64,000 bases of DNA. Origin: Yuukianura sp. NJ FZ-2021 (Eukaryota). Positions 1 to 30,563 of the stretch are shown here, in pieces. Position numbers and translations under genes: made by a program. The DNA is taken from contig CM102283.1 of NCBI GenBank assembly GCA_046563655.1, forward strand, positions 1,922,001-1,986,000, read 5' to 3'. Every line of letters starts with the position of its first letter. Positions within the stretch are counted from its first letter, which is position 1. The notes below the pieces were generated by a model. The model had not been told where the DNA came from. It made no database searches and worked only from the letters and a program-made list of their open reading frames with translations.

Positions 1-29
1 TTTACTAACCTTTTTGATTACTTTTCTAG

Positions 30-1248
30 CGGTAGGAGTCAATTCTGTGTCACTAGTGACAGGAAAATGTCCTGTTTGTGAAAGGGATATGGAATTGAAA
101 AACTTGTTTGGTGTCCTCGCATGTGCAAATTGTGGTCGCAATTTCTGGATGGCTGTTCGTCTCAACCGGCCGAAGAGTTGTCCAAAAGAAGTGCCATGCA
201 GGAATCTACGGTCTTGTCATGGATGTCGCTGGACAAAGTTCGTACAAGCTGGATTTAAGCCCGAATGTAAGTGTATTTGCATCCTATAAAGTAAAAATGA
301 GGAGTAAAGATTAATTTTTTGAAAATTTTCTGACTGGTATTTTTTGTAATTCAGTGGTGAATTTGCCAAAGGGAGTAATGGAACCTGTTCAAACAAGCTA
401 TACTTGTGCAGTATGTGGTGATGCTGGCAAGCATCGGTGCCGTGACGGACGTGTGTGTGGCAGTTGTAGTTTATTTTTCAGTAAAATTACTGTAAAGGAG
501 GCTGTGCCGGTTTGTACCAAAGGCGGGAACTGTCCCATTGACATGCTCACAAGAGTGGACTGCAAGGCCTGTCGTCTTCAAAAGTGCTACCAAGTCGGCA
601 TGCGCCGAAGTAAAGTTGTCGTAAAAACATTTTTAAAGTAGAACTTTCCAAATAGTGTAAATTGATTGGTTGTTTGTGGTGTGTACAGCAAAGGCCTATA
701 CGAGACGAACGGAACCGGACGGGTCTGTGCAAAATTGTAAAATCTGCGGTGACGTTTCCATTGGAAGTCGCTATGGAGTCCAATCCTGTGAATCTTGTTC
801 CTTCTTTTTTATGAAGGGAAGTGGTAGGGACTTTGGAGACTGTATGGTGACACACGGAAACTGCGAAATTACGAAGGAAACACGCACGAAATGTCAACCT
901 TGTCGTATGGCCAAATGTGTTGAGCAGGGCATGAAGAAAGGTCAGATTTAAAAAAAATGAAACTAACAGAATATCACAGTGTTTTGATTACGTTAATTGT
1001 TTTTTTTCCTAGCTCCTGAGCGAAGACGACTAGGACGAATTCCTAAAGATTCAGAAGAGGCTCGTGCCTTAAGGAAATTAATCAGCAACGCTGCAGCGGA
1101 ACCTGCTGAAGCTGCTTCCGCTGAAGCTCAAAATACTGCTGAAAATGCTGATGAGCCGCCGCAGTTTGCTCTGGAATTGGTTTCAGTTCCACATGAAAGC
1201 CCCGCCGGAACCACCTACTCATTTTCGTTGCCCGCAAATGAGTGGTAG
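30..1248 (+). CDS. Nuclear-receptor-like protein with >=3 tandem C4 zinc-finger DNA-binding domains, no LBD (5' end outside window)
   Basis: Exons 30-266, 355-609, 689-940 and 1013-1248, joined by GT-AG phase-1 introns in a continuous frame. Each of the first three encodes CxxC..CxxC-x-FF/NF..C..C..CxxCR..K..G[MF]. The last exon has RLGRIPK followed by a short acidic tail and TAG. Confidence 0.85.
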
Positions 1249-1853
1249 AACTTTCGTTTAGGTCAAAGGTCAAATTGAGATTTTTGGCAACAAATATTTG
1301 ATTTTGATACATAGTAGTAGTGATGTAAGAAACGAAAGTTTTGAAACTTTCAAAATTGTGGTAGAGTTTTTTTTTTAGAACAAATGTCGCGTTTAGAATT
1401 CACTAATTTTTGTTACTTTTTTTTAAACATTTGTTGTCCATTTCTAATTAGTGAGAGGTTTATATCTTGATTTTCATTGGTCAAAGTCAGAGTTACGAAA
1501 TTAAATGTTTCATTTCCACAACGAATCATCTAGGAATTTGGTCCAAGAATTTTCTTGGACCAACTTCCATACGAAGTTTGAAGAGCAAGGAAAATATTGT
1601 TGATTTGATAATTTTTCTAGGGATGTTAATTGGTTGAACCAAAGTTTCCTCACCACCTCACCTCTTTATTAATGAGTTAACTAATAATTAATCATTAATT
1701 AGGAATAAATGTATTAAAAAATCTGAGTCGACCACATTGAAACTCTTAATTTTCCTTGTGATCTGTTTCCTGTAGCTTTCGACTTGTAATGATTTTAGTT
1801 GATCTTTGAAAGTTATTAAGAAAGCGTTGATCTCCCTTTGAATTTTGGACAAG

Positions 1854-2643
1854 ATGAGGGTCGTCGTATTTCTGTTGGTGGTAAATTTTACCTTAGTTGT
1901 TAGTGGGTCAAAAAACTGGGAAAGAGCAAAACAAGCACTTGCTCATGGAGATCAAGTTTCAGAATTCGCAACAGAACAAGCAAAAGAAAAACGTGGATTT
2001 GGTATACTTTTTTAAAATGAAATTTTAATTTAATTTAAATATTAATTATTTTTTAGGTTATTTAAAATCTTTTGCTGAGACATTTTTCATTTTTAGACTT
2101 TTTCAAGCAGGGACTGGCGAAGCTTCCTATAGGTCTAAAAAACGGTGATTAGAAAAATTTTTTTAAATCATTTTGAAACAAAGAAAACATTTCCATTCTT
2201 TTTTTCGATGTCGTTTTTTGAATGTGATTTTTGTTTATAAGACTTGCAAGCAGGAATGGAGAAGCTGCATAGAGAATTCGTTGAACCAGTTGAAACCACC
2301 GGTAATTTTCAAACCAATATAATTGTGTTTAGCTTCCGTAATAGTAAATTTTAAAACAAAATTTTTTTTCGAAAGATTTCCGGCACAATGTTGAAGTTGC
2401 CCAAAGGGATATCCAATGGTGACAAATTTTTACTGACAAAAAATTTCAGCGCTATAGTTTTGAAAAAATGTTAAAAAAATAATTTTGCTTTTTGAAGACC
2501 TGCAGAAAGAATTCCGGAAATTGCCGAAAGGAGTTCAGCAAAAAATCGGATGTTCATCTCTGGCAGAGAAATTCAAACAAAGGAAAACCCGCAAAATAAT
2601 CAACTTCAGCGTTAATGGCCTCATAGCAGTTAAAAACTTTTAG
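1854..2643 (+). CDS. Putative small secreted multi-exon peptide precursor
   Basis: MRVVVFLLVVNFTLVVSG signal-like start, KR site, then short exons (2097-2132, 2242-2301, ~2376-2418, 2498-2643) with related motifs (DFFKQGLAKLP, DLQAGMEKLH, DLQKEFRKLPKG). The phase of exon 4 is ambiguous. Confidence 0.45.
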
Positions 2644-2800: not shown

Positions 2801-4600
2801 TTATCGTTTCAACACGTCAACAAAAATTGGTTTGTGAATCAAAATAAGGCTCCCGCCAATTTCTGATTTACAAATCGTGTCCGGGCGTTTAGCAATTTTA
2901 AACTTTTTCAAAAAAGTTGCCAGTAGAATTTTGAGTGTTTCCGTTGCAAATCGTTGACCAATGCAATTTCTTGGGCCCTGTCCAAATGTCAAGTTAGTGT
3001 AGGCGTCACGCGACTTTTTTTCGTCACCCATGTACCGCCATGGATCAAATTTTTCAGGGTCTGGATAAAACTCAGGATTCATATGCAATGCAGGGAGGGA
3101 AAATATGACATCGGTGCCTTTGGGGATCCGAATTCCCTCAAACTGCCAATCCTGGTTGCACTTCCGATCGAGCCGAATGAAATTGGCATGCATCCGACCA
3201 GTCTCCGTAATCGCAGCGTTTAGAAGCGGAAGATTGTTACTAATTGCTTCCAGCGTCAAATGTGGCAAAGCGTCAATTTCGGCTAAAATTGATTCTTGAA
3301 CTTCCGGATTTACAGCCATTTCGTACATGAAGAATTCAAAAGTGTCACGAGTTCCAGCGTATCCAGCTAGAAAAAATTCCCACGCTTGTGCAAGGACAGC
3401 GTTTTCGTTGATTCCTAGCCGTTTGTAGTCTGCGTCACTCCGAACTTTTTTGATCATTTCAACCAATGATGAAGTGGCATCAATTGACTCTTGACCTGAT
3501 TTTTCCCGCGTAGCCAAAATATTTTTCAAGGCGCCAAGAAAGAAGTTCATTCCACTCTCGTCTATTGTAATGGATTGATATTTTTCAATAATTGGGAACA
3601 TTTCTGTTCAAAAAACAAAACAAAATAAAACTTCAAAATTATTGGAACTCATTCTTTTAAGTTTGAAATTTTGAGAAACTGACTTGTAATGATTATTTTC
3701 CAGTCTTCTTTGGGCATGTCATGAAAGAGTGCCAATTTCATATTTCTGATAAATTCGTTATTCGGATCTCTTGCATTCGGGATTTCAATACCACAGAAAC
3801 ATTTTGACAAGATTTCCAGAATCATTGGAGCGAGAAATCTGTTTCAAAAAATATGTACAATCAAACAAAGTCTTATTGTCAAAAAAAAATATTTTTTTTC
3901 AATTTTTTTTTGTAAATTACTCTTTGAATTCCATTTTTTCAAAACGGCCATTGGACTTCTCACATTGAACTAGCAGTGTCTGCGCATACTCTTCTGCGAC
4001 GCTCTGAGTAATGGTATTCAGTTGTTTGATTTTCCCGGTGGTAAAAATCGGAGTTATGGCGTTCCGGACAGTTTTCCATTTTTCATCTAGTACAAAATTG
4101 TATGTATGGTTTATATTATATGTGTAATATTTTTTATAGTATATTTTTACCTTCAAGCATATCCAAAATTTGGTTCATAACTCCAGTACTGTCGCTTCCA
4201 AACGTTCGTCCATGGTTTCGAAAATGATCAGAATTTACTGTGGTAATCAAACGAATCAATTTTGGATCAGAAATGTAAATTTGTGGGCTTCTTCCATCGT
4301 AAACCTGAAAACAACGAAATTAAAAATCTTCAAGAAATAAGTTTTTAAAAAATTTGTCCAAAATTTTGAAATCCTTACGCCATAAATGGTACCATATTTT
4401 TCCCGCCGTTGGATATCCAGATCCTGGATGTTCACCCATGGTTCAACGTAGTTACTGCCAAAAAATAAAAATGGTTTTACAACTGGAATTCCAAGAGACT
4501 CCAGCAATCCGTAGTTCCAACGAGCATAAACAATTGCAATTATCAGAATTCCAACAACTACTGCCACTATTAAACTAATTAAAGCCAAAATCAAATCCAT
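2801..4600 (-). CDS. Cytochrome P450 (CYP3-clan-like), copy A
   Basis: 5 exons; N-terminal TM anchor, WKTVR, ETGR, DPWRY, heme motif FGQGPRNCIG. Confidence 0.93.
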
Positions 4601-5268
4601 TTTGAACAGTGCTAGGCTAGTAAAATTCAACTTTTCAACATTCAGCTAGGTTCCTCTTCAACTGAAAACTAATTCATTTGAGTGGGTGAATTTATAACCT
4701 TAACTTTGTTTTTTCAAGGTCTTTAAATTAGTACGAATCAAGGACTTTTCTAAAGAGCAAAACAGTTTGAAGTGGCAAAAAAAATCTGACGAGCAAAAAC
4801 ATATTTGCGTTTCAAAAAAGTTCTTTATCTTGCTAGAGTTTTTTTTTTGACAAAAGACAAATTTGTATAAATGACAGCCTAAAAACTTTTATTAACGCGT
4901 CTTGACGTTATTGCCAGTGACAGTTTGACCTTGTATATCAATGACTTGCACCTTACATCATTGACTTACATCTTACATCCTACATCATTGGTTACATCTT
5001 ACATCAATGACTCTTATATGAATCCTTTACTTGCAATGAAACATACATGACAATATAGAATACGCAGTTATAATTGTTGGAAATTGAAAAAAGTAAACCA
5101 GTAAAAAATAAAATGAAAATGAAAATAATAAATGAATATAATATAACAAAATATGAATGAAAATATAATATGTGTTTTCCGTTGTACTTGTACTGCTACA
5201 TTTTTTATTGTTACTCACTAGTTCAACAAGTAGACGGATCAACACCGTTTAAAATGTCTGTTAAACAG

Positions 5269-8200
5269 TCAGCGTTTAAATACATCAACATAAATCGGTT
5301 TGTGAACCACAAGCAGACTCCCGCCAACTTCCGCCGTACAAGACGTGTCCAAACGTTTTACAATTTTGAACTTTTTCAAAAAAGTTGCCACTAGAATCTT
5401 GAGTGTTTCCGTTGCAAATCGTTGACCAATGCAACTTCTTGGACCATGTCCAAAGGTTTGGTTAGTGAACGGATCACGTGACTTTTTTTCGTCACTCATA
5501 AACCGCCAAGGATCAAATTTATTTGGATCCGGGTAATAGTCAGGGTTGAAATGCAAAGCAGCCTGGGAAAATACGAGCTGCGTGTCTTTTGGAATCCGAA
5601 TTCCCTCAAACTGCCAATCTGCATTGCATTTCCGATCGAGCCGAAAGAAACTCGAGTGCATCCGACCGGTTTCTGTAATGGCAGCAGTCATGAGCGGCAA
5701 GTTATTGCTGATCGCTTCCAGCGTCAAGTGTGGCAAAGCGTCAATTTCAGCGAAAATGGATTCTTGAATTTCTGGATTTACAGCCATTTCGTACATGAAG
5801 AATTCAAAAGTGTCGCGAATTCCGCTGTACCCCGCCAAAAAAAATTCCCACGCTTGCCCAAGGACAGTGTTCTCGTTGATTCCTAGCCGTTTGTAGTCTG
5901 CGTCACTCCGAACTTTTTTCATCATTTCAACCAATGATGAAGTGGCATCAATTGACTCTTGGCCTGATTTTTCCCGCGTTGCCAAAATATGTTTCAGTTC
6001 GGTAATGAAGAAGTTCAGCCCGCTTTCATCCGCTACTACCGCACTGTATTTGTGAATGATTGGAAATATTTCTATTCAAAATAGTAAAAATTGAAATTGG
6101 AATAAAGTTGACCGAAAATTGAAATTTTTTAAAGAAATACTTTATCAAATTTTGGAAAACTTACTTGCAAGCATTACTTTCCAGTCACCATTGAGTGGCG
6201 TCTCATGCCAAAGTGCCAGTTTCATGTTTTTGATAAACTCGTTATTCGGATCTTTTGCATTTTGGATTTCAATTCCACAGAAACATTTTGACAAGATTTC
6301 CAGAATCATTGGAGCGAGAAATCTGTTTCAAAAAATATTTGTAAAAAAAATACCTTTGAAATTCTAATTTTTCTAATTTTTTTGAAATTCACTCTTTGAA
6401 TTGCATTTTCTCATAGCGGCCATTTGACGCTTCACATTTAGCCATCAGCGTCTGTGCATAATCTTCTGCAATGCGCTGCGTAATTGTATTGAGCTGCTTG
6501 ATTTTTCCAGTGGTAAAAATTGGCGTCAAGGCGTTCCGGACAGTTTTCCACTTTTCGTCTAGCAAGAAAATGATGTGTTTTAGTATTTTACATAAAAATT
6601 ATTAATAATTCTTTATTATAGTTTATATTATTGTTATGTTTATCTCAATGTATGTGATCTCAATTTTTTCATTTGCATTTCTACAACTGCTGATTTTTCC
6701 TGTGTGGTAAACTGGTTTCATCCATGTGATTGAGAAGTTTTACTTACTGGAAAAGTCTTCTCCGTTGTGTGTTTCAATTTCGCAGTTCTTTAGATTAATT
6801 CATTGTTAATCAACTGCTCTTACTATAATACGCTGCAGTACTAACCAGTCGAGAATAGTCTCCGTCTCAGTCTCTCAGCCAAACAGAGAACACGTATAGT
6901 CTTGTTACTGCAACAGCCTTTACACATAATTGTGGAACACAAATTAGTAAATAATGGCTCCTGCAAGAAAAGTTGGCAAAGGAAAGAGGACTAGAGAAGC
7001 TGGAGGAAACGACGACGAAGAGCAAGGGTCATCGCCAAAAAGGTCACATACTAGTGACACGTCACCAAAAGTGTTCAGACCGGCAGAAAACTTAACGCTC
7101 GCAAATATTGCTCAAATTGTACAAGATGGTGTACAACAAATTACTGGACAAGTTTCATCCCTTGTTAAGACTGTTGAAAATTTAGCTACGGAAGTAAAAG
7201 AAACCAAACAAAGAGTCACAAAACTGGAAGAGTTAAGTTACGGTGCTGACGTTAAGTGGAAGGAACTGCAAAGATGTGTGGAAACAGTGGACTTACAATC
7301 TCGAAAACTAAATCTGGTGATCCTGGGCTTAAATGAATCAGTGGCAGAAACAGAAATTGAACTGAAGTTGGCAGTGTCAAAATTCATCAAAGATGTACTT
7401 GAGGTACAAAATCGAATTGAAATTGACACCTGTTTTCGATTTGGAAAAAGATTTGGAGACAAACCAAGAAAGGTCAAGGTCAAATTTACGAAACAACATG
7501 ATCGGAACGTAGTGTTTGGTGCCAGAGAAATCTTATTTCAGAAGAAAATCAGCATTTACGTGAACGAAGATTTGCCACAAGTTACTATGGACAGAAGGCG
7601 GATGCTGCGGGACGAGGCTAACAAGGCAAGAATACTTGGGAAGAGGTCAAAGGTCGTGGGAGATAGGCTCATTGTGAATGGAGTTGCATTCAAGATTGGC
7701 TCTAATGGAAATCTGGAAACGGACGAGACATCCCCACCACAATTGGAAAGACACAGTATGATTGGAACTGGATTACAAGGTTCAATGCCAACCAACAGTG
7801 GATATCGCAATGCTGTTCTAAGACGAAGCAACGAAAATCAGGTTCAAGGACAAACACAACAAACTGGAGAAACAATGGAAGAAGAAGGAGGAAACTGACT
7901 AAATAAGTGTAAGAATCTCGTAAAACACACAACTAAAATAGGACATTTAAATGTTAGGTCAGTTAATGATAAATGTTACGAGATAGATAATATTTTGACT
8001 ATTGAAAAGTTGGACGTGCTTGGTTTGTCAGAAACATGGCTAAAAGAAAATATGCAAATAGTAATTCCAAAAAACTACAATTTTTTAAGAAAGGACAGGG
8101 AAAAAATTGGAGGGGGGGTTGGCATACTTTACAAGAAAAGCTTAACCGTTAAAAAATTGATTTTGAAAACTTGGAATTTAAGTATCCAACTTCACTGGAG

Positions 8201-11200
8201 CACATCTCTTACAGTTTTCAAGACGGTTTTGTTAAAAGTTTTATAGTGTGTGTTGTTTACATACCAGATAAAAAGTTGAACAGAAATGACCTTCATAATT
8301 TGGAAGAGATTTTAATGCAACTAAGTAAAACAAACAAAGTTTTTTGGGTTTTAGGAGATTTTAACAGAGATCTTCTGGATTCAACTAACTACTCTTGTCA
8401 ATTAATCTCAATTGTTGAGAAAATGGGATTAAAGCAACTTGTTAAAGAACCAACTAGAGATTTGGCATTATTGGACTTGATAATAACAAATTTCGAAGGT
8501 GGAAATGAAATCAAAATTAAAGACTACGGTGTTTCTGACCATGCATTGACAATGGTCAAATTTAACACTGTAAAATCGAAAAGGACACAAATATTGATTG
8601 AATCTAGAGATTATTCGAAAATTGACCAAATTAAACTTAATGAAATTATGTTGGAAAAATTTAACGATTTTGAAGACTTTAAAGAAGTGAATAATATGCT
8701 GAATTTTGTCATTAATGAGACTGTCGAAGTCTTTGACAGAGTGGCACCGATCACAAAAAAACGAAAAAACTCTGAAATAAAGCGTACAAATAAACCATCT
8801 TCAGAACTGACCAGCTTGATTAAGCAGTGTAACGAAAAGTTCAAGATGCTGCGACGAACAGGTCTCGAAATACTGAGGGAAGACTTAAAAAAATTAAAAA
8901 AGAGGTCAAAAAGTTGACAAAAAAAGAAATTCGACAAAGAATAGCCGAAAAGTTAAAAAAAACAGACGTTTGGACAACCTTAAAAAATGAATTAAATTTT
9001 GAACTAAAAAAGAGACAAACAATGCCTAACGTAGACTTTGACATTAATGAATTAAATGAATTTTACATCAAAAATTCGTTTCCAGCGGATGTCGTTCCTT
9101 ACAATACACTTGAGGACAATAAGATCTGTAATATAAATGAAGAATTGTTTGTTGTAAAGGAAATTAAAGCTTGTGAAGTTAAAAAAACATGGAGAAAAAT
9201 TAAGAATCGAAATTCAACTGTTGAAATAGATGGGATTAGTAAAAAAATGTTCAGTATACTGATGAGCTTTCCAAATTTTGTTCAGACTTTAACAAATTTT
9301 TGCAACTTGAGTTTTGGAAGCGGGGAAATACCAAAATTATTAAAAAGAACAAGAATTTGTCCCATCCCAAAAATTAAAGATGCAAGAAACTTTAAAGATT
9401 TTCGTCCGATTGGAATTTCGCATTTTCTGTTGATTTTACTTGAAAAACTTTATGTGCAAAAATTTTTGGAACACTTAAAAAATAACAATTTGTCTTTAAG
9501 TGTCAATCAGTTTGGCTGTCGAAAAAATCATTCGACTGAACAGGCTATGATATACACTGTGGACAATATTAAAAAACAACTTGATTTGGGCAAAGTATGT
9601 TTAATGGTCAGCATTGACCTTAAAAATGCTTTTCCAACAGTACATAGAGAAAACTTTCTTAAAAAATTGAGGAAACAATTTAAAGTATCTGACTTTTGGT
9701 TACGGAGTTATTTTACAGACAGAACACAGTTTGTACAAATTGGCGACACTAAATCTGAGGAGAGGAATAATTTAACAGGTTTGATTCAAGGAAGTGTGTT
9801 GGGACCGATTTTTTCACTTTCTACATAAATGATTTAGAAAAGGTATTATTAGTATCCAGACCACAAATTTTTGTGGATGATACAAATCTGATGTTTATTG
9901 GAGAGTGGAAGGAAAAAACAGCATTAAGAGAAGGGGTAAATGGTGAATTACTAAGGGTGACTAATTGGATTGACGAAAACTATTTAGTAATAAATAGCGA
10001 CAAAACAAAAGTCCTTATTTTTGGAAGTAAAAAACAATTGGAGATTTTTGGAAATTTTGAAATAATGGTTACTGGTTATTTGATAGAGTCTTCGGAAGAA
10101 ATCAAAAGTCTGGGATTGATATTACAAAGGGATCTGAAATGGGACAAACATATTGATGTGGTTATTAAAAAATGCTACGTTGTAATAATCAATGCGTATA
10201 AAGTTAGAGAATTTCTAACAGAAAAAGCAAAAAAATATTTATGGAAGCAATGGTACACTCAATTCTAAAATATATGTTTGTACTCTACGGTCAAACTACA
10301 ATGAAGAATTTGAAAAAAGTCGAAAAAGTAATACGAACAATGGCGAGGTTCGTCACTGGTTTAAAGAAATTTGAACCAGTGGCTGAGGAATTAACAAACA
10401 AGTTAAAATGGCTTCTTCCAAAATTCTTTTTTGAGTTTCAAGTTTTGTGTACAACACATAAAATTTTATATGGAAAGCACGTTAGTGTATTTGATGACTA
10501 CTACAAATACACTTCTGAAGTACATAATTACCCGACTTCAAGGTCAAACAAAAACTCGTTAACTTATGAACATAATAACAAAGGAAAACATTGGCAAACG
10601 ACATTCCAAGCACGTTCAATTCAGTTATGGAACTCTTTACACCCAGAAATAACAAACATCAAGAATTACCAAAAGTTTAAAGATTCTGTTAAAACGATGT
10701 TAATTAAGAAGCAAGGACATTCCTTAGGTATAAGTGATTAGGAATAAGTAATTAATTTTATAGGATAAGTATAGGATAAGTTTGCAATGTCATTAACTTT
10801 TAATTTTAATTTTAATTTTAAGCGAATACTTTTAAGGAAATAAGTCTTAGGGTTAAGTTAACGAGTAATTTTCTTTTTATTTTATTTTAAACGTTAAAAA
10901 AAACACAATCGAACGGGTTAATGAAAGATTAAAGACTGATAATTCAATTGACAAGATGTAAAGCCACTAGCGTGGGTATCTTGTCACTAACAATTATGAA
11001 AGAAAAATGACAAGAATAAATGGCAAATAAAAAAAAAAAAAAAAAAAAATTATCATTATTATATTCTTACCTGCGAGTACATCTAAAAGTTGCTCCATAA
11101 GGCCAGTACTGTCGCTCATCTCCCATCCATGGTTTCGAAAATGATCAAAATCTACTGTCGTAATCAAACGAAGCAATTTTGGATCCGAAATGTAAATTTG

Positions 11201-11522
11201 CGGGCGTCTTCCATCGTAAACCTACAAACAACAAATTGCAAAAAAAAAGAATCAAAAAATGTGTTTTTTAAAAATTTGTGTGAAATTTTGAAATTCTTAC
11301 ACCGTAGATGGTACCGTATTTTTCTCGCCGTTTGATATCCAATTCCTTGATGTTTACCCAGGGTTCAAAGTAGTTACTTCCAAGAAACAAAAATGGCTTC
11401 ACAACAGGAATTCCAAGCTGCTCTAAATATCCGTAATTCCATCGAGCATAAACTATGGCAATTATTAAAATTCCGACAACTATAGCCACAATTAAACTAA
11501 TTAAGGTCCAAATTAAGTCCAT
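5269..11522 (-). CDS. Cytochrome P450 copy B; intron 2 contains a LINE
   Basis: Exons 1-2 at ~11522-11071 and exons 3-5 at ~6558-5269, same exon layout as the paralogs; FGHGPRSCIG. Confidence 0.9.
6954..7898 (+). CDS. LINE ORF1 (coiled-coil plus RRM-like RNA-binding protein)
   Basis: 314-aa intact ORF; heptad region followed by NLVILGLNE...RFGK...PRKVKVKF...YVNEDL, typical of LINE ORF1. Confidence 0.8.
   Translation: MAPARKVGKGKRTREAGGNDDEEQGSSPKRSHTSDTSPKVFRPAENLTLANIAQIVQDGVQQITGQVSSLVKTVENLATEVKETKQRVTKLEELSYGADVKWKELQRCVETVDLQSRKLNLVILGLNESVAETEIELKLAVSKFIKDVLEVQNRIEIDTCFRFGKRFGDKPRKVKVKFTKQHDRNVVFGAREILFQKKISIYVNEDLPQVTMDRRRMLRDEANKARILGKRSKVVGDRLIVNGVAFKIGSNGNLETDETSPPQLERHSMIGTGLQGSMPTNSGYRNAVLRRSNENQVQGQTQQTGETMEEEGGN
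7899..10741 (+). CDS. LINE ORF2 (AP endonuclease plus reverse transcriptase), four 1-nt frameshifts as given
   Basis: GHLNVRS, LSETW, GGGV, LGDFN, LDL, SDH (APE); FRPI, NQFG, SIDLKNAF, QGSVLGP, YINDL, FVDD, LG (RT). Confidence 0.88.
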
Positions 11523-12486
11523 TTTAACAATGTTAGGTTAGCAGCCTAACTAAATTGGGTTCGTCAGAAGAGATTTGTGTGCGCTATAATGTTATTTAGC
11601 TGCGCTTCTCTTCAACTGCCTCCATACACGGTGTGTGTGGGCAATTTTATAATGGTGAGAGGTTTTTTTACAGACTGCTTTCAGTTAATAATCAAGGACT
11701 TTTTTTTTCAGAAGAGTGAAAACAGTTTCAAGCTGTGTTACCAAAAATGAAAAAAGAAAAAAAACAGCGCTTTAAGTTCTTGAAGTGTTTTTGGCACATG
11801 CAAATGACAGATTAGGAACTACATTAAAATTGTCAAAGGAAGGCGCGCGTAGTTAAATTCTGTTACAGGCAGTTGTTGTGCATCAATGTCGTTATTTACA
11901 CCATTCACTTACATCTTGTTGGTAATTATTAACTTACTTCAGTGAAAGTTTAATCCCCAGACTTATATCTATAGATGTACGTGGTTCGTATTTTACTGAA
12001 TTTCAAAAATAATCTTTTTTGGAAACAATTTTTGCAGTGGAGTTTACTTTTTAGTTGGAATTTTTTTTTAAAGTTGAGTTATGTGCTTCAACCGTCAAGT
12101 TTTGTCTAAAATTACGTTCAAGTTTGACAACAAAATTAATTGCTTGCTAATGAAAGAAAAATCTAATTTGAAAAAAAAAAAACACAAACACTTTATTATA
12201 CTTACGCGTTTTATTACACAACTAATATAATTTTTACAAAGCGAAAAAAAGGAAGAGAGTGAAATTCATCAAAACTGCAATTTTTTTCTATTTTTGATGA
12301 AGTTGCAACAGAAGAATGAAGATGTTTTAAATGTCTTGCTGTTTTGGTAGTGACGTAGTACTAACATACATGTATGTATATAGCATGTACATAAATGTAT
12401 GTATATGTGTACTGCATAAAGATTTTACTTGTTGTAAACAATAGCTAAACACATGAGTTAAACAGTTTAAGACGTCTGTTAAGCAG

Positions 12487-14665
12487 TCAGCGTTTCCATA
12501 CATCAACAACACGTTTGTGAAGCACAACCGGATCCCCGCTAGGTTTCAACTTACGCGACGTATCTAAACGTTCTACTATTTTGAATTTTTTCAAAAAAGT
12601 TGCAACTAGAATCTTGAGTGTTTCCGTTGCAAAACGTTGACCAATGCAATTTCTTGGTCCATGTCCAAATGTCAAGTTAGTGTAGGGGTCACGTGACCGT
12701 TTTTCGTCACCCAAAAACCGCCAAGGATCAAATTTGTAAGGATCTGGGTAGTAGTCAGGGTTGAAATGCAAGGCAGCCACGGGGAATACGACCTGAATGC
12801 CTTTTGGAATCCGAATACCCTCGTACTCCAAATCTTCATTGCATTGCCGATCGGGCCGAAAGACAAGCGGATGCATGCGCAAAGTTTCCGTAATGGCTGC
12901 AGTCATAAGTGGCAAGTTGTTGCTGATGGCGTCCAAAGTCAAGTGTGGCAAAGCGTCAATTTCAGCGAAAACGGATTCTTGAATTTCTGGATTCTTGGCC
13001 ATTTCATGTATGCAAGATTTAAAAGTGTGACCTATTCCGACATATCCCGATGAAAAAAAAATCCTAGCCTGTGCCAGGACCGTATTTTTGGTGATTCCTA
13101 GTCGGTTGTACTCTGCGTCGGTGCGAACTTTGTTCATCATGTCAACGAATGCTGCAGTTGCGTCAATTGACTCTTGACCGGATTCTTCCCGCGTTGCCAA
13201 AATATTTTCTAAAGCGCTGACCAAGTAGTCCACCCTGGTTTTATGCGATTCAAAGGTTTCAAAAGTTTCATGGATGTCCAATTCTTGCATAAGCATTTCC
13301 AATTTTTGAATAAGCATCTCCAGTTTTTGAATAAGCATGTCCAAGGGTTTGATCGCAACCCTTAGAATGATTGGAAATATTTCTGTTGAATAAAGAGTCG
13401 AAAAATAAAACATAATTTCAAGTCAAGGTAAAACAGAATACTAATAGGTAAGGTAATATAAAATTTTTTTTTTAAAGTAGCTGCTATGGGTAAGTATTTG
13501 CCTTTTTCCTATTTTTTCACACGCAGTGACGTCATTTACAGTGCTGTTAAACATTTGTATCATTTTAGCTACAAAAATTGCTGCGTTTAAACTGGAAAAA
13601 AAGCTAGAACTTAGATAAACTTGAAATGCACTCGCAGTGACGTCACTGTGTGTTTACTGTTCAAAAATCCGTTTTGCCCGCACAAGCTTTTCAGCCACCA
13701 CCTGATTAGAAGTTAGTTTTTTAAACTTTTAAAATTTTGAAAAACTTACTCACAAACAGTACTCCCCAGTCATGATTGTCATGCAAAATTGCCGCTTTCA
13801 TATTTTCGATGAACTCATTATTGGGATCCTTTGCATTCGGGATTTCAACCCCGCAGAAACATTTGCACAAGATTTCAAGTATCATTGGACCAATGAATCT
13901 GTCTCAAAATGGGTATTTGTAAAATTTCTAAAAGTTTCAAAAAATTGAATGTGTCTTAAATTTACTGTTCGAAATCCATTTTCTCATAAAGGCCGTTCGA
14001 CGCTTCACATTTAGCCATCAGCGTCTGCGCATACTCTTCTGCAATGCTCTGCGAAATCGTGTTGAGCTGCTTGATTTTTCCAGTGGTAAAAATTGGAGTC
14101 AAGGCATTCCGGACAGTCTTCCACTTTTCATCTAGTACAAAATTATATATTTTATATCAAAATTATTAATAATTTATTATATTATGGTTCTTATGATTAT
14201 CATATTACCCTCGAGCATATTCAGAAGTTGGCCCCAAACGCTACTACTTTGGCCAAAATCCCACCCATGGTTTCGAAAATGATCGAAATCTACTGTTGTA
14301 ATTAAACGAATCAATTTTGGATCCGAAATGCAAATTTGCGGGCATCTTCCATCATACACCTGGAAGCAACACGTCAAAATTTCCAAAACCCAGAAGAAAA
14401 AAGTTATATTTAAAAAAAAATTCAACAATTTTCAAGTTCTTACACCGTAAATGGACCCATATTTCTCTCGTCGTTGGATATCCAGTTCCAAAATGTTTGC
14501 CCGCGATTCAGCATAGTTACTTCCAAAAAATAAAAATGGTTTCACAACAGGAATTCCAAGCTGCTCCAAATACCCATAGTTCCAACGAGCATACACAATT
14601 GCAATTATTAAAATTCCAACAACTGCAGCCAAAAATAAACCAAACTGTGTCCAAAGTACGTCCAT
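12487..14665 (-). CDS. Cytochrome P450 copy C (divergent, with heptad-repeat insertion)
   Basis: Same 5-exon layout; ETLR, DPWRF, FGHGPRNCIG. Confidence 0.88.
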
Positions 14666-14991
14666 TTTTAACAATATTAGTTCAGCAACGTAACTACTTG
14701 CTTGTGTTAGGTAGGTGAATAGCCCAGACGTGCGTTTGCAGTGCGTTAAAAGCTTGCGTTTACTGTTTACATGAAGTGATTTGAAGCGACTGAAGAGAAA
14801 CACTAGATTTCACAATGCAGAATACTTCCTTGTAAGGCTATTGCAGAAGATCAGAAAGGAAAGAAGTGTAAAATTAGACTCATTTTTGGATGAAATGAAC
14901 GCACTAATATTTATTTTTAGAACATAGACGTTAATAGAAACGGTCGTTCACGTTTCCCGGATTTGTAGAATTCGGTTTGGTTTGCTCAATA

Positions 14992-15212
14992 CAGTAAAAC
15001 TCCAAATTTGGAAACTTTTTTTTCCTCTCATTCATGTGACAGTGGGGTACCGTAAAGACTAACTTTTGAAGACGGAGAAGAGTTCGTGGCCTTTTGACTG
15101 GTCTAATTTCTCCAATGCACTGTGCATAGAAAGTTTACGGTAGGCGCGAAAATCCTTTAGACCAACCAACGAATCAGAATCAGAGTGAGTTTCCTAATTT
15201 GGAGTTTTACTG
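14992..15212. mobile_element. MITE, Tc1/mariner/pogo-like
   Basis: ~25-bp TIRs cagtaaaactccaaatt(t/a)ggaaact, flanked by TA on both sides. Confidence 0.8.
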
Positions 15213-15269
15213 TAAAACGATTCTTGAGAAATGTGTATCCATAGTTGCCAACAGTTGGTCAAAAACCGA

Positions 15270-17080
15270 TTATCGTTTCAACACATCAACAAAAATTGGT
15301 TTGTGAATCAAAATAATACTCCCGCCAATTTCCTGTTCACAAATCGTGTCCGGGCGTTTAGCAATTTTAAACTTTTTCAAAAAAGTTGCCAGTAGAATTT
15401 TGAGTGTTTCCGTTGCAAATCTTTGACCAATGCACCCCCTTGGGCCCTGTCCAAATGTCAAGTTAGTGTAGGCGTCACGTGACTTTTTTTCGTCACCCAT
15501 GTACCGCCAAGGATCAAATTTTTCAGGATCAGGGTAAAAGTCAGGGTTATAATGTAAAGCAGCGAGAGGAAATACTAGTTGAGTGTCTTTTGGAATCCGA
15601 ATTCCCTCAAACTGCCAGTCCTTGTTGCACTTCCGCTCGAGCCGAATGAAATTGGCATGTTTCCGACCAGTCTCCGTAATCGCAGCTTGAAGTAATGGAA
15701 GATTGTTGCTAATCGCTTCCAGCGTCAAGTGTGGCAAAGCGTCAATTTCAGCCAAAATTGATTCTTGAACGTCCGAATTTACAGCCATTTCATACATGAG
15801 GAATTCAAAAGTGTCACGAGTTCCAGCGTATCCAGCTAGAAAAAATTCCCACGCCTGTGCAATGACCGTGTTTTCGTTGATTCCTAGCCGTTTGTAGTCT
15901 GCGTCGTTCCGAACTTTTTTCATCATTTCAACCAGTGTTGAAGTGGCATCAATTGACTCTTGACCTGATTTTTCCCGCGTTTCCAAAATATTTTTCAAGG
16001 CGCCAACGAAAAAGTTCATTCCACTTTCGTCCATTTCGAACGTCTGGTATTTTTCAATAATTGGAAACATTTCTGTTTAAAAATAAAAATAAAATTAAAC
16101 TTAAAAGTTGGATTTTTTTTTCAAAAAACTTGAAATTTCAAAAAACTGACTGTAAATGAGTGTTTTCCAGTCTTCTTTGGGTTGGTCGTGCCACAATGCC
16201 AATTTCATGTTTTTAATAAATTCGTTGTTTGGATCCGTCGCATTTGGAATTTCAATTCCACAAAAAGATTTGGCCAAAACTTCAAGTATCAATGGAGCAA
16301 GAAATCTGTTTCACCAAAAAATTCACAAAAAAACGTGTTTCCAGTAAAATAAAAATTGAAATGTGCCGTAAATTTACTCTTTGAATTGCATTTTTTCGTA
16401 ACGGCCATTGGACTTTTCACATTGAACCATAAGTTTCTGTGCATACTCTTCTGCGACACTTTGAGTGATTGTATTCAGTTGTTTGATTTTCCCGGTGGTA
16501 AAAATCGGTGTTATGGCGTTCCGGACAGTTTTCCATTTTTCATCTAGTACAAAATGACAAATTTATATTATATGAATATATATTATATTTATTATATTAC
16601 ATTTTATAATAATATAATTTTTCTTACCATGAAGTACGTCCAAGATTTGAGTCATAACGCCATTACTATCGCCAATATACCATCCATGGTTTCGAAAATG
16701 ATCGAAATCTACTGTTGTAATCAAACGAATCAATTTTGGATCAGAAACGTAAATTTGGGGGCGTCTTCCATCGTAAACCTGCAAAAAACGGAATATCAAA
16801 ATTTCAAAAAAAAAATGATCGTTTTTTGAAAGTTTGTCCAAAATTTTGAAATCCTTACGCCATAAATGGTACCATATTTTTCCCGACGTTGGATATCCAA
16901 CTCCTTGATGTTCACCCAATGTTCAGTGTAGTTACTTCCAAAAAATAAAAATGGTTTCACAACTGGAATTCCAAGAGATTCCAAATATCCGTAGTTCCAA
17001 CGAGCGTAAACAATTGCAATTATCAAAATTCCAACAACTGCAGCCACAATTAAACTAACTATGGTCCAAATTAAGTCCAT
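15270..17080 (-). CDS. Cytochrome P450 copy D
   Basis: Close paralog of copy A; FGQGPRGCIG. Confidence 0.93.
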
Positions 17081-17586
17081 TTTTGACAATGTTAGGTTCG
17101 TTGTGGTTAGATTCTTCTTCAACTGCAACTAAACTCATCAGTTTATGTGGGTGAACTTATAACTCTTAGCTTTTTCGTTTCGTGGTGTTCTAAATTAGGA
17201 ATCAAGGACTTATTAGCAAAAACACTTTGAACTTGCAAAAAAAGTTCCATAAGTGTTTTTGACGCATGATAGATTAGGAACCTCAAATCGAAATGACCTT
17301 GGATTTGAATAATGTTATTGCCGGTGACAGTTTAACCAATGTTAGGTTGTACATCAATGACTATAACATCTTACATTATTGCTCTACAGCTTACATCAAT
17401 AATTTTATTACGTAAACTGTAATCTCTATGTACGTGAAAGTTTATCGTAAAGCTTGACGCAAATTTATGAAATCACAAAAAAACATAAACTTTATTTTTA
17501 ACCCGCAACTTCATTAAAGATTGAGATGTTTGCAAAAAGAAATGTTTTTTTTTATTGTAATTTAAGTGCGATTTTATTGACGAGAA

Positions 17587-17700: not shown

Positions 17701-18239
17701 CTGCTTTGCCAAATTTAGTTGACATCATTTTTGAAAAAGAAAAGCTGACAACTTTAAACACAACTATTTTTTGAAAGTTCTGAAAAAAAACGAGTTTTTG
17801 TTCAAACCACAATTTTTGTAATTTGCCGACTTTTTAATGAAGTTGGTGTTACACATAGTTTTTGAAACGAGAAAATTTGATAAATGTTTCGGTTTTTGGT
17901 GACGTCCATTTTTTTTATCTAATGTTAGTTAAAATTAGTTATTTGAAAATGAAATGTGGTTTTTGGTCTTTAATTTTAATTGAGATTTAAATTTATCAAA
18001 AAAAAGTTAATGATGGAAGCGACATGTGCATAATTTTGGCTAAAAATTTTCCTTTAATTTGCTAATTGTTTCACCGCAACTTCCGTTTCTGGGGTTTGAG
18101 GCAAGATGGAGGAAGTCCTACTCGTAGACCTATAAATATGAGCGATCCTTCCGTCCAGCATTACAACATTTTTAGAGTTTTCAAAATTTTGAACTTTCTG
18201 AAAATTTTGAAAGTCAAGGTCAGAGGTCAGTCACAAAGT

Positions 18240-25012: not shown

Positions 25013-26096
25013 ATGAATTCCTACTGCCTTTTAATTTTTAGTTTTTCTGCAGCAATAACTTGTTCTGAAGGTAAGAAATGCACATGCGTGTTGCGTTTTG
25101 CGTGTGAAATTTTTGTGCGTTTGACCCTGAGGTCAAATCAAAAACTATGAAAAAACATTTCCTCGTTTGCTGTCATTGTATTTTGCTTTTGTCTTTGCCG
25201 CGTTATAGGGTTCTTGCCTTGGGGTTTCGGCGGAGGTGGAGGCGGATTTGGGGTCAATGACCTCTACAATTTTGCTGGCCAGGGCGGCGGTTTTCCACTA
25301 GAAAGTCTTGGATTCAACTTTCGACCGCAAGGTCACGGCGGGTCAAATAAGAACTTTGACTCGTCTGTTAAGCAAGACCGTAGTGAAGGCGGCGGTGAGT
25401 AGAACTTTCCTATTTTTTACATTTTAGAAATGACAAGGGTCATTGACGTACTTTTGTAAGAACCAAAGGTCAATGCCCTCGCCATTTTACGCCCAAGGTC
25501 AATGACCCCGCTATTTTCAAACCAAAGGTCAATGACCTTATATGATTTTTCTCAGATTTTGAGTCCGCAGCTCTTCAGGAAACCAACAAGTACCGGAAAA
25601 TGCATCAAGCTGGTCCACTTTCTCTGGATCCCGAGGTTTAGAAGAAAAAAAAATTATAAAAAAATTTTTTTTACATAAATTGTTAATGTGATTATTAACA
25701 TTTATTTTTGTTGTTGAAATTTTGAAGTTGAGCGCCGGATGTCAAGCTTGGGCAGAACGGATGGCTTCCACTGGACAATTCAAGCACAGTTGCAGCATGT
25801 GCAGTGAATACGGAGAGAATTTGTGGATGATGGGCGGACTAATCCTGAGTCCACCGGATGCTGCTCGGAAAGCAGTCACGAGTTGGTACAACGAGGTCAA
25901 AGATTACAATTTTAACAATCCCGGGTTTTCTGGTGCCACTGGTCACTTCACAGCATTGGTCTGGAAGGGATCCACCAAAATGGGCATCGGTTTGGCCACA
26001 AATCCAGCCAAAAAGACAACCTACGTTGTAGCACGCTATGTCGAAGCAGGAAACATGCAAGGAGCATTTGCTGAAAATGTTTTGCCGGCACAATGA
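25013..26096 (+). CDS. Secreted CAP/SCP protein 2 with Gly-rich N-terminal region
   Basis: Signal exon 25013-25070, Gly-rich exon from 25209, then TNKYRKMHQAGPL, YGENL, GHFTALVWKGS, VARYVEAGN. Confidence 0.87.
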
Positions 26097-26376
26097 AAAC
26101 ACTTTTCAACAAAAGTGAAAAAAAAAAATTTCAAAATTTTCAAAAACTCCAATTTTTTGCTTCGCAGAGCCACACTTGTTCAAAGTTTGAGTAAAAAAAA
26201 ATAGATTTGCACCGCAATCAAAAATTTGGGGCTTATTTTTGTGACTTAAATTATTATTTATTTCAGTCTAAAAATAAATTACTAGAGCATTCCAACTTTT
26301 GAAATTTTAAAAAATATTATTTCATGTTTGAAAAAAGTGGTGTTTTTTTTTTTGTCAAAAAAATTTGAATCTTTTT

Positions 26377-27759
26377 TCAGAATCCGTGCAGATTCGATCT
26401 TGCACGAGGAAACCCATGTTGGTGAAATCCACGAGCGGAGTTTTCAGCCGGATAGTATATGGCTACGACGACCATTCGACGCGCAGAAGCAGCAAATCCA
26501 ATTCCAAATTCCTTTGCAGAAGGGGACACAAGCTGCGTAAATGCCGATGGAACTGGATTTCTGGAATCGTAGCTCATACGCTGCGAGTACCAGTAGTTAA
26601 TTGCCGTTTCGACAGACATAGAAGCAGAATTTGAAAATGATGGACCAGATCTGCTGTAAATCAAAACGCCGGAAGTGAATGTTGATTGGTTAGGTTCGTC
26701 AACCTGATTGGCTAAAATTTTGGCAGCTTCTTCTGCTCCCCGGTTTAAAGTTTCAGACAAAATTAGTGGCGGAACTTTATGTCTGTGTCGGAGTTTGTTT
26801 TGCAAAGTAAGGGCAAGGAGTTGATGTTCTGCACATGTACCGACTGACGCTACTTTGTCCAGGAAGTTCCAGTGATGAAGGTTCATGCTGCCGATGGTAT
26901 CGGTTTTCTGAATTTGTACCGATTCACCGGTACAACTCGGTCCCGAGTAGAGCCGAACACAAGCGTCATGCGTATTCACCGAAGCGACATTTTTGTACAT
27001 TGGCGGAAACACGTTCTTACAGTCATAAACAACCAAGTCTGCTTTCTTTCCTGAAGAAAAAAGGCAAAATTTTGAATTAGCTCACAAAGTGCAAAAAAGA
27101 TGATGCTTTTAAAAAAATGTTTTTTGAATATATTTTTAGCTTTTACCTTTTCTATCAACAAATTCGTACAACGAAACCAAAAGTTCTGAAAAATCTGCAG
27201 GAATGAAAAAAAAAGTTATATAAAATTTCGATTCCGACAATTCTTTGTTTTAGTGAGCTCACCATCGTCGTAGTCCATTTCTCTGATATGCTCCGAAATG
27301 GCAACACTTCTGGTGGCAGGGGAACACAGCTTAATTGCCAGCAATTTGTCATTGAAATCTTGGTATTCGCCGCTCAAATCAACCAAATTTGATTCTCCCG
27401 CCAAATTTGAAATGATCAAAGGTTTTGCATCGGTGCAAAGCCGCGTAGCATGAAGTTCCAAGCAGGCGCTTTTGTGGAGGAGCAGTGACGAAACACGATA
27501 GAGCCAGCCACGTGGCATCGCCGTGCATGAAATCACATCCAACATAGTTGAGTCTCCTGAATTTCAAAAAAGTTCAAAACTAAAAAGCATGTTATTTACT
27601 AATTGTAACTTTTCAAAAAATTTTTGAAAGGTTTTTTTTTAATTTACCGCCTCCATTGTTGTGGTCAAACACAGTAACAGTCTCTGCACCGACGGTAGTG
27701 CATAGTGTCACAAAAATTAAAATCGCCGCCAGTGAGTAAATAGATTTAATCAAATCCAT
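26377..27759 (-). CDS. Secreted protein: two beta-gamma-crystallin-like domains plus degenerate CAP domain
   Basis: Signal peptide; Greek-key-like motifs (TVFDHNNGGG..RVSSL..FNDKLLAI; VASVNT..VRLYSGPSCTG..FLDKVASV); C-terminal NKLRHRHKVPPL..WY..AFTQLV..FGIG..VVAIYYP. Confidence 0.7.
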
Positions 27760-28842: not shown

Positions 28843-29763
28843 TTAGTTGTAACAACCGGATTCGATACCCGGTCCTTCCAGACCGAACGCAGACCGAACA
28901 TGACCGTAAATCCGGTAGCGAGCTTCAGCTTTGTCTCGGTTTTGACCGTAGCACTCCAGCGCTCCATTGATAGCCCTCGTGGTGGCTCCAAAGTGGCCTT
29001 GAGCCACTCCCGGTTGGTTATGCACATTGATTCTCCAGAACCAAAAAGCAGTGTCCCAAGCCGTCTTTTCGTCACGCGCCACCCTGTCCGGGTCACGCAC
29101 GAGCGTATCGTCTCCAAAGATGTCTTTTGATGCTGGTCTGTAGTTGTAGCACCATGACAACTGAATGTACCCTCTCCCGTAGTAGTCCTGTCCATGCACA
29201 TCGCAGTCTCTAGTTTCGTAGTGACCAGGGCAACCGGTTTGTGCGCAGGCGTACTCCCGTTTAGCTCGAAGTCCGTCTGATTCGTGCATGAATTGGGCCA
29301 AGGCCATTGCTCCCTCCACTTTGCTGGTAATAGAACCCCGGATGGGTGCTGAAGTGATGAAGGCGTCGTACTTGTCTCGTCCTGGAGCGGGGTAACCGTT
29401 AGATGTAACGGCGGCCACAAACTGTTCAAAAGTGACTTGTCCTAAAAAATTTTTTTCAAAATTTTTGAAAAAGAGTAAAAAAAAATGCTCTAGAATTTTG
29501 AAATTTTTTTTGAATATACCAATGTCATCAGCACCGGTTCCCGGATCGGTTTCGCCACCACCGTGACCCGGATCATCAGTGGGGTTGCAGCATTCGTAGA
29601 TCCATCCGCCAGCACATTTCGTCTTGGATTTCTCCACTTGTCCGTAGGGATGGCAACCAACTTGGGCCCAACTGTCCAAGTTACAGCCTGTCGTCCAGCA
29701 GGAATTTGCAGCGGCACAGGACGCCAAAGCAGAAACAACAGTCAAAATGTATACTGTTTTCAT
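28843..29763 (-). CDS. Secreted glycoside hydrolase family 19 chitinase with N-terminal 6-Cys module
   Basis: AQFMHES, YYGRGYIQLSWCYNY, TAFWFW, FGATTRAINGALEC; one in-frame 78-nt GT-AG intron at 29442-29519. Confidence 0.92.
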   Translation of the reverse strand: MKTVYILTVVSALASCAAANSCWTTGCNLDSWAQVGCHPYGQVEKSKTKCAGGWIYECCNPTDDPGHGGGETDPGTGADDIGIFKKNFKILEHFFLLFFKNFEKNFLGQVTFEQFVAAVTSNGYPAPGRDKYDAFITSAPIRGSITSKVEGAMALAQFMHESDGLRAKREYACAQTGCPGHYETRDCDVHGQDYYGRGYIQLSWCYNYRPASKDIFGDDTLVRDPDRVARDEKTAWDTAFWFWRINVHNQPGVAQGHFGATTRAINGALECYGQNRDKAEARYRIYGHVRSAFGLEGPGIESGCYN

Positions 29764-30563
29764 ATTCTCGGGTTTTTGGTGAAGTAAAAATTGAAATTTT
29801 GAAGTAAAAATTAGCAAGTTTTTGAAACATATTTATATGCTTGATGGATGAGCTGACGCACAGAGATCATCCAAATTTCGTTTTCTGGTGGATTAGCAGT
29901 TTATTACACCGTAAGATTAAAAAGTAGCGGCATTTTGCAATTTTTGGCTTTTCGCAACAAAGCTACTTCCTCTAAACAATACGTAGAATTTGATACGCAG
30001 TGAGTTCATAAAACTTATCATTTCCACTTTCAACTTTTTTATTGAACTTGACATTATGATAGATGAACAGTAAGGACAAAACAACAAAGCTTTTTTAGAA
30101 AAAATAGAGGAAAGAAGGAATTTACTAAAGTTGTAAACGGATCATCGGATTTGCAGTTTACGACGCAACCACGATCAGCGTCGACGTCAATAATCTTCAG
30201 ATCATCCCGAAAAGTGATGATCATCCTGTAATGTGATGACATCAGAAACGGCTTAACTCACTCGTCTTGTATATTAGAATCTGAATTATAATTTTTATAT
30301 CATGATTTATATATTTTATATTCTAATTTTTAGAATTGGTTTATTTTATTACAGTCACGTGTTATGACATTTGAAATGTACGTTTAATGGCACAATTTAA
30401 AGCTAAATGTAAACAGAAAATTCACAAGAATTCATAAAGCGCGTACCGTCTACTGAGCTTGTATTGTCTATAAGGTTTCTCTAACGAAGTCTTTACTTTA
30501 ATGTAGAAACTTATTCAAGGTGTAGAGTTGAAACTAGAATTTAGTTAACGGCTTTGCTAAGTT

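Follow-up and report, generated by a model that had tools for sequence, protein, structure and literature searches.

The window analyzed here is a 64-kb stretch of Yuukianura sp. NJ FZ-2021 (GenBank assembly GCA_046563655.1, contig CM102283.1, positions 1,922,001 to 1,986,000 of the forward strand), and it opens on a nuclear-receptor-like gene that is cut at its 5' side by the window edge. Four exons of this gene lie between positions 30 and 1248 of the plus strand and are joined via GT..AG introns, with all junctions in phase 1, i.e., after codon base 1. The first three exons encode one two-finger C4 DNA-binding domain (DBD) each, and the fourth encodes a Grip-box and an acidic tail. The joined exons comprise 981 nucleotides (nt), with 326 open codons and a lone terminal TAG, and the length of each DBD exon is a multiple of three (Table 1).

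Gene structure and zinc-finger domains

The reading frame of exon 1 is open as far as the window edge. A splice acceptor at position 29, noted in a preliminary description of this DNA, is supported by a branch-site-like TACTAAC, a pyrimidine run, and an AG, which points to at least one coding exon upstream of the window. Read-through of any intron meets a stop codon (in intron 3, in frame at 949-951), and in exons 1 and 3 the first Cys is not preceded by an ATG in frame. Since the introns are also only 72-88 nt long, separate genes are unlikely, and the agreeing phases, short introns, absence of ATG codons, and read-through stops make a single transcript the economical reading.

A canonical nuclear-receptor DBD consists of two C4 modules, C-x2-C-x13-C-x2-C and C-x5-C-x9-C-x2-C. 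In the gene, 24 of 24 Cys are present, eight per domain, and the Pfam family zf-C4 (PF00105, gathering cut-off 21.1 bits) was identified in all three domains, with 22.5 bits for DBD1, 52.4 bits for DBD2, and 64.2 bits for DBD3. Together with the GT..AG phase-1 junctions, these matches bear out the preliminary description, which had claimed three two-finger C4 domains on one symmetric phase-1 exon each. The Cys spacing of DBD2 is exactly canonical. In DBD3 a single Cys (Cys5) is displaced by one residue (x14/x6), and in DBD1 one residue is added to the first loop, making it x14, and finger 2 has its last loop reduced from x9 to x5. DBD2 and DBD3 each matched 88 distinct nuclear-receptor DBD sequences in the PDB (E <= 0.001), the best matches being FXR for DBD2 (3e-12) and NR1D1 for DBD3 (4.9e-14, 55.2 bits), with a lead over other subfamilies of a few bits only (0.2-5 bits for DBD3 and NR1D1). 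DBD1 matched the nuclear-receptor chains of the PDB weakly (best E = 0.0033), and its sequence is marginally consistent with a degenerate zf-C4 fold. The start-to-start period of the DBDs is 83 and 84 residues, and the modules are approximately 18-20 residues apart. No further C4 first finger was detected in the 64 kb by a six-frame regular-expression scan, and the three-domain signal far exceeds what chance would give.

The P-boxes, CANCG, CGSCS, and CESCS, are non-canonical and were read as previously stated. Lys after Cys4 is found in 0 of 3 DBDs, Glu at P-box position 1 in one of the three, and the Arg of the FFxR motif in none.

The start of exon 4 encodes a basic C-terminal extension containing RLGRIPK at 1027-1047, with a pre-Grip stretch of seven residues, and the stop codon follows 66 codons later, in agreement with the Grip-box-like motif and nearby stop described earlier. 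According to the available parts of PMC10497141, the Grip-box consensus RXGRZP was defined on Rev-erb and sits in the minor groove, and a version of it is kept after the second DBD in receptors with two DBDs (2DBD receptors). RLGRIP fits this consensus. The 53-residue tail after the basic part contains nine acidic, no basic, and 13 Ala residues, and a 14-nt unit is present three times in the Ala/Glu-rich part of exon 4. No Pfam family matched exon 4, and no PDB match to the tail was obtained at E <= 10. From its composition alone, the tail is probably a disordered effector region.

The ligand-binding domain (LBD) of nuclear receptors lies C-terminal to the DBD. Pfam Hormone_recep (PF00104) was found neither in exon 4 nor in the 14 plus-strand open reading frames (ORFs) between 1262 and 2640, and tblastn of 154 receptor proteins, most with C-terminal domains, against the 64 kb gave a best E of 0.035 outside 1-1000. 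The gene is without an LBD within the window, as the preliminary description had it. P0059 gave a tblastn match at 2491-2637 (E = 0.048), which was put down to chance in view of the 154 queries and a Lys-rich stretch.

Table 1. Coordinates of the gene, its parts, and neighboring features, numbered from the first letter of the window.
Feature	Positions	Strand	Remarks
Upstream intron, 3' end	1-29	+	Branch-site-like TACTAAC 3-9, pyrimidine run, AG 28-29; putative acceptor, from motifs
Exon 1, DBD1 (degenerate zf-C4)	30-266	+	237 nt; P-box CANCG 122-136
Intron 1	267-354	+	88 nt, GTAAGT..CAG, acceptor AG 353-354, phase 1
Exon 2, DBD2 (zf-C4)	355-609	+	255 nt; P-box CGSCS 456-470
Intron 2	610-688	+	79 nt, GTAAAG..CAG, acceptor AG 687-688, phase 1
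Exon 3, DBD3 (zf-C4, best preserved)	689-940	+	252 nt; P-box CESCS 787-801
Intron 3	941-1012	+	72 nt, GTCAGA..TAG, acceptor AG 1011-1012, phase 1
Exon 4, last coding exon	1013-1248	+	Grip-box RLGRIP 1027-1044; TAG 1246-1248
Probable 3' untranslated region (UTR)	1249-1709	+	Presumed extent; perfect direct repeat 1 (DR1) AGGTCAAAGGTCA 1260-1272; candidate AATAAA 1704-1709
Next plus-strand gene	1854-2640	+	ATG at 1854
CYP3-clan P450 tandem array	2801-17128	-	Large exons 2801-3607, 5269-6075, 12487-13422, 15270-16076; N-terminal exons 4256-4645, 14432-14809, 16796-17128
Non-long-terminal-repeat (non-LTR) retrotransposon	6951-10741	+	Within the P450 array
Two CAP-domain genes	25692-27081		Adjoin the GH19 ORF
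GH19 chitinase ORF	28843-29832	-	
Half-site arrays	25467-25538, 35086-35163, 41040-41087, 48690-48952		Last one a degenerate tandem array

Some further features of the gene region were observed. Just two copies of the sequence TTTTGATTAC are present in the 64 kb, at 12-21 and 982-991, and both lie at most 30 nt upstream of acceptors, before exon 1 and before exon 4; since at least two matches occurred in 16 of 100 shuffles, their placement alone is notable. In intron 3, one DNA contig each of runs X1 and X4 links 949 with 1010 and leaves out 60 nt, with undefined sequence in between, and another X4 contig spans the full length. If the skip is a true deletion, 12 nt are left and exons 3 and 4 are in frame without splicing. 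Breaks at 1675 and 1715 occur in contigs of X1, X2, and X4, and an X5 contig has one at 1676; the runs with both junctions share the same foreign flanking sequence on each side, which indicates structural variation in intergenic DNA or the probable 3' UTR. Contigs of X2 and X4 reach 666 and 553 nt, respectively, upstream past the window start.

Selection on the reading frame and relatives in protein sets

The five sequencing runs listed for this stretch are all DNA, with no RNA run among them. Contigs of four runs, from two studies and under two organism labels, were aligned to positions 1-2800 and represent several haplotypes. The best-supported 40 of 271 differing places, all between 118 and 1281, and 12 of 68 insertions or deletions (indels) were used. 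Among these differences, the DBD exons, with 160 synonymous and 581 non-synonymous sites, contained 11 synonymous and four non-synonymous ones, corresponding to a ratio of non-synonymous to synonymous differences per site (pN/pS) of approximately 0.10 (binomial p = 2.7e-5 for at least 11 of 15 synonymous). The synonymous and non-synonymous counts were 3 and 2 in exon 1, 4 and 1 in exon 2, and 4 and 1 in exon 3, where the non-synonymous difference is the first base of the exon; the Cys and P-box residues were untouched. The run with the second organism label showed five synonymous and no non-synonymous differences in the DBD exons. Exon 4 contained eight differences of each kind (pN/pS approximately 0.33, p = 0.026), with all non-synonymous ones in the acidic part and only synonymous ones in the basic part and the Grip-box. 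The in-gene indels were both intronic, a 1-nt insertion at 312 in intron 1 and a 1-nt deletion at 614 in intron 2, the latter intron also showing five substitutions. The 11:4 ratio and the low pN/pS of the DBD exons mark a constrained coding gene with purifying selection on its reading frame and not a relic.

A profile of DBD2 and DBD3 was compared with 1.84 billion representative proteins, yielding 7661 matches at E <= 0.001. No ortholog was found in this set, which evidently does not include the protein of the gene itself, and the tail matched nothing. The best identities to foreign DBDs were 36.5%, 47.0%, and 48.5% per domain. A search for DBD2 homologs among longer proteins gave four candidates, none significant, and in metagenome contigs a protein-guided scan gave 594 pattern matches, none confirmed, and an exact 41-nt pattern gave 0. 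The preliminary description had also proposed expansion by exon duplication, for which the identities provide no demonstration: the three DBDs are 24-31% identical to one another, versus up to 36-48% to foreign DBDs, and any duplication of a single symmetric exon behind them would be an old event. The phylogeny of the individual DBDs that it had suggested left them unplaced and speaks neither for nor against exon duplication; in a maximum-likelihood tree of 180 DBDs over 81 columns only 11 of 164 inner branches were starred, none of them around the DBDs of the gene. Nor did these DBDs show a preference, by likeness, for the first or the second domain of two-DBD proteins.

Because scores add over domains, the best of the match list is enriched in multi-DBD proteins. 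Among the best 150 of the 7661 matches, 110 had two near-full DBDs and 29 had three to six, with 3, 4, 5, and 6 DBDs in 13, 11, 4, and 1 proteins, respectively. Pfam confirmed three to six zf-C4 stretches in most of the 29, and Hormone_recep was found in P0006 only. The named sources were Caenorhabditis brenneri (three), the mites Dinothrombium, Medioppia (two), and Oppiella, the stick insect Bacillus rossius (a RefSeq model), and Argonauta, and the rest consisted of four UniParc-only entries and 16 proteins from other assemblies. Some of the named proteins are certainly fused gene models, among them P0006, with receptor-like stretches between its DBDs, and P0019, fused to an aminotransferase. 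At least 10 of the 29 are on contigs barely longer than the ORF (e.g., 746 residues on 2673 nt, 878 on 2703 nt, 746 on 2302 nt, and 495 on 1904 nt), so that their multi-DBD frame is uninterrupted and cannot come from an exon-joining artefact; these short contigs are presumably transcripts. As regards the rarity claimed in the preliminary description, it holds for the full-text literature outside subscription journals, in which no paper on receptors with at least three DBDs was found, and it needs qualifying for public protein sets, which contain dozens of predicted proteins with three to six DBDs.

Within this group, P0002, P0003, P0004, P0008, and P0014 have four to six receptor DBDs each. 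In the four whose sequences were compared (P0002, P0003, P0004, and P0008), the DBDs are followed by a common C-terminal domain of approximately 230 residues, which Pfam does not call an LBD (among six proteins scanned, the best E was 0.17, in one of them). The contigs of P0003, P0004, and P0014 exceed the ORF only slightly in length, and P0002 and P0008 come from UniParc, with no contig data.

The recognition helices of the proteins with at least three DBDs differ from those of two-DBD proteins. Excluding domains that do not fit the pattern (13 and 18 in the two sets, respectively), Glu at P-box position 1 was present in 14 of 96 domains of proteins with at least three DBDs versus 142 of 202 in two-DBD proteins, Lys after Cys4 in 21 of 96 versus 167 of 202, and the FFxR Arg in 34 of 96 versus 189 of 202. 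The median DBD period was 86 residues in 77 two-DBD matches (54 of the 77 within 80-89) and 125 in the poly-DBD set. The gene combines geometry like that of the 2DBD family NR7 and a Grip-box with helices like those of the poly-DBD proteins, and has no LBD.

Surroundings in the 64-kb window

The window contained 110 copies of AGGTCA, versus 25.6 +/- 5.4 in shuffles. Nine DR1 sites (AGGTCAnAGGTCA, at most one mismatch; 0.19 expected) were identified, with unrelated flanks, including the perfect copy 12 nt past the stop codon of the gene and others at 18217, 39561, 41068, and 63746. Additionally, there were seven perfect inverted repeat 1 (IR1) palindromes AGGTCA(A/T)TGACCT (0.01 expected) and several of the sites lie in the short arrays listed in Table 1. 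The AGGTCA sites may be regulatory elements or may belong to a small repeat family, and the non-canonical helices give no reason to expect that the protein of the gene reads them.

The next plus-strand gene has a signal-peptide-like start and continues in small exons repeating a motif that ends in KLPKG or LPIG; it matched no Pfam family. Beyond it lies the minus-strand tandem array of CYP3-clan P450 genes, whose best single-domain database match was 47% identical and whose best named near-full-length match was from Orchesella cincta (36%). The non-LTR retrotransposon within this array has a frame broken into several ORFs, with endonuclease (21.4 bits, below the Pfam cut-off) and reverse transcriptase (52.1 bits) matches. 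The best named full-length matches of the GH19 chitinase were from the springtails Folsomia (52%) and Orchesella (48-49%), with others from Bradysia gnats. The G+C content of the window is 31-42% and introns are short. These values and matches fit, on weak grounds, a springtail-like soil arthropod that has no closely related annotated species. Rfam and tRNA scans of the window gave 0 matches.

Interpretation and comparison with known receptor layouts

Taken together, these results suggest, with a probability that we put at roughly 0.55, that the locus is a constrained gene with at least three tandem DBDs and no LBD, encoding a ligand-independent transcription factor. In such a protein, at least three zinc modules would be chained, each touching its own DNA element via an altered recognition helix; the minor groove would be contacted by the Grip-box in addition, and the acidic tail, as effector part, would recruit the transcription machinery. 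We propose that, with an element of its own for each domain and altered helices, a single polypeptide, acting as a monomer, could recognize a long composite site. That all exons are spliced together, that the protein binds DNA, and that the tail has an effector role are predictions from the sequence, and the uninterrupted ORFs with three to six DBDs found elsewhere provide a precedent for tandem inclusion.

Several points weigh against this interpretation. The joint inclusion of the exons is itself predicted, and the 5' end lies outside the window, which consequently does not fix the start codon and the true domain count. DBD1 clears the Pfam cut-off by 1.4 bits only and its second finger is shortened, and all three recognition helices lack canonical base-contact residues, so that DNA binding is not assured. 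The tail evolves fast, with a density of the differences used of 6.8% versus 2.9% in introns. The selection estimate covers just the best-supported 40 of the 271 differences, and contigs with less than 90% likeness could be paralogs. Finally, as no ortholog was found, conservation is unshown beyond the sampled populations.

Adjacent, homologous, symmetric exons of similar length are the usual signature of tandem-duplicated alternative exons, and the main rival explanation is that the three DBD exons, which are of this kind, are mutually exclusive or skipped cassettes, with one or two of them per mRNA, giving LBD-less single-DBD isoforms that differ in specificity and have a shared Grip-box tail. 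Their symmetric phase 1 means that any combination keeps the frame. The same property, with lengths that are multiples of three, also means that the frame does not enforce exclusivity, and the introns of 72-88 nt are too long to block joint inclusion. In addition, no convincing docking/selector pairing was found among the inverted repeats of 1-1300, whose A/T-rich arms are 75-91% complementary, and a full-text search of the literature gave no report of mutually exclusive DBD exons in nuclear receptors. DBD1 alone would bind poorly, and uninterrupted ORFs with three to six DBDs are known in other animals. This evidence is not decisive, and we regard alternative cassettes as unlikely while keeping them under serious consideration.

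It is rather doubtful that the zinc modules no longer read DNA and instead make protein or RNA contacts, e.g., as a competitor or partner of canonical receptors. The loss of Lys after Cys4 in all three domains and of Glu in two of the three, the absence of the FFxR Arg throughout, and the shortened finger 2 of DBD1 are consistent with such a role, but the framework residues and the 24 Cys are kept under purifying selection, and the Grip-box, a minor-groove motif in the accessible text of PMC10497141, is kept with only synonymous differences. A canonical-type receptor with LBD exons beyond the window or reached via an alternative 3' end, which would make the missing LBD an artefact of the window, is very improbable. 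The 5' truncation by the window and the further shared C-terminal domain of P0002, P0003, P0004, and P0008 after four to six DBDs would allow for one; however, exon 4 has an in-frame stop followed by AATAAA candidates, the next plus-strand gene has its own ATG and is followed by the P450 array on the other strand, and no LBD-like match was found in the 62.7 kb downstream. An LBD would moreover be expected C-terminal to the DBD and not in the missing 5' part. We give just as little credence to a decaying or unexpressed duplicate, i.e., a pseudogene of DBD exons. It would account for the degenerate DBD1, the lack of an ortholog, and the absence of RNA among the runs listed for the stretch, but the frame is open over four exons with intact splice signals, synonymous and non-synonymous differences in the DBD exons stand at 11:4 (p = 2.7e-5), and none of the indels used is exonic.

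A broader reading, which we hold only tentatively and consider rather improbable, is that several invertebrate lineages have turned receptor zinc modules into polydactyl arrays of a second kind, and the gene, with a separate exon for each module, would be a compact example of these. The fold-defining residues would be fixed and the base-contacting helix residues free, as in C2H2 finger arrays, and a monomer could read long, fast-evolving targets without ligand, possibly including the AGGTCA half-site clusters of the window. The database survey itself suggests an overlooked class over mites, insects, nematodes, and further assemblies. If the modules bind DNA, they would offer a natural system for studying how the fold gains specificities and how chained domains read composite sites, and, with one module per symmetric exon, the gene clearly stands out as a candidate for gaining or losing domains by exon shuffling or alternative splicing.

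Receptors with two DBDs, a DBD only, or an LBD only are described in the available portions of PMC10497141, PMC1810520, and PMC11589774, the first of which recognizes four layouts, namely DBD plus LBD, DBD only, LBD only, and two DBDs plus LBD. As far as these sources extend, the 2DBD receptors (NR7; Wu & LoVerde 2007, 2023; PMC1810520, PMC10497141) resemble the gene in having tandem DBDs in one polypeptide, in their short, fixed spacing (17-22 residues between DBDs in PMC10497141; period 83-84 here), and in the Grip-box after the last DBD (RLGRIP here). Their P-box pairs are CEACKK-CEGCKG or LPCKS-EGCKK in the consulted part of PMC10497141, and also among our matches, in contrast to CANCG, CGSCS, and CESCS. 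NR7 receptors have exactly two DBDs followed by a hinge and an LBD, whereas the gene has three DBDs and no LBD in the window.

Receptors of the knirps type (NR0A) carry a family-specific box after the DBD. Like the gene, they have a DBD without an LBD, according to the accessible sections of PMC10497141, but this DBD is single, in contrast to the three DBDs and Grip-box found here. Rev-erb (NR1D) includes the closest PDB match of DBD3 (NR1D1, 55.2 bits) and, on the same partial source, shares the Grip-box consensus; it differs in its P-box EGCKG, which is not in the gene, and in its LBD, which the gene is without, and the seven-residue pre-Grip stretch of the gene also counts among the differences.

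A further comparison is with the uncharacterized poly-DBD proteins of the databases. Examples are P0001 (six DBDs), P0007 (four), P0016 (three), P0009 (Dinothrombium tinctorium), P0012 (Bacillus rossius XP_063216918.1), and Caenorhabditis brenneri CAL2035663.1, and these proteins share with the gene the multiple zf-C4 domains (three to six), the lack of a Pfam LBD, and highly variable P-boxes. They are not orthologs of the gene (identity up to about 48% per DBD, with the tail unmatched), their DBD spacing is wider and irregular (median 125, versus 83-84 here), and some may be fused gene models. No Grip-box was seen by eye after the last DBD in the poly-DBD sequences fetched, and GRIPK occurred in 0 of the best 150 matches. 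The gene appears to represent an undescribed poly-DBD, LBD-less variant of nuclear receptors. With at least three DBDs, no LBD, and purifying selection, it would add a fifth nuclear-receptor layout to the four recognized in the available text of PMC10497141.

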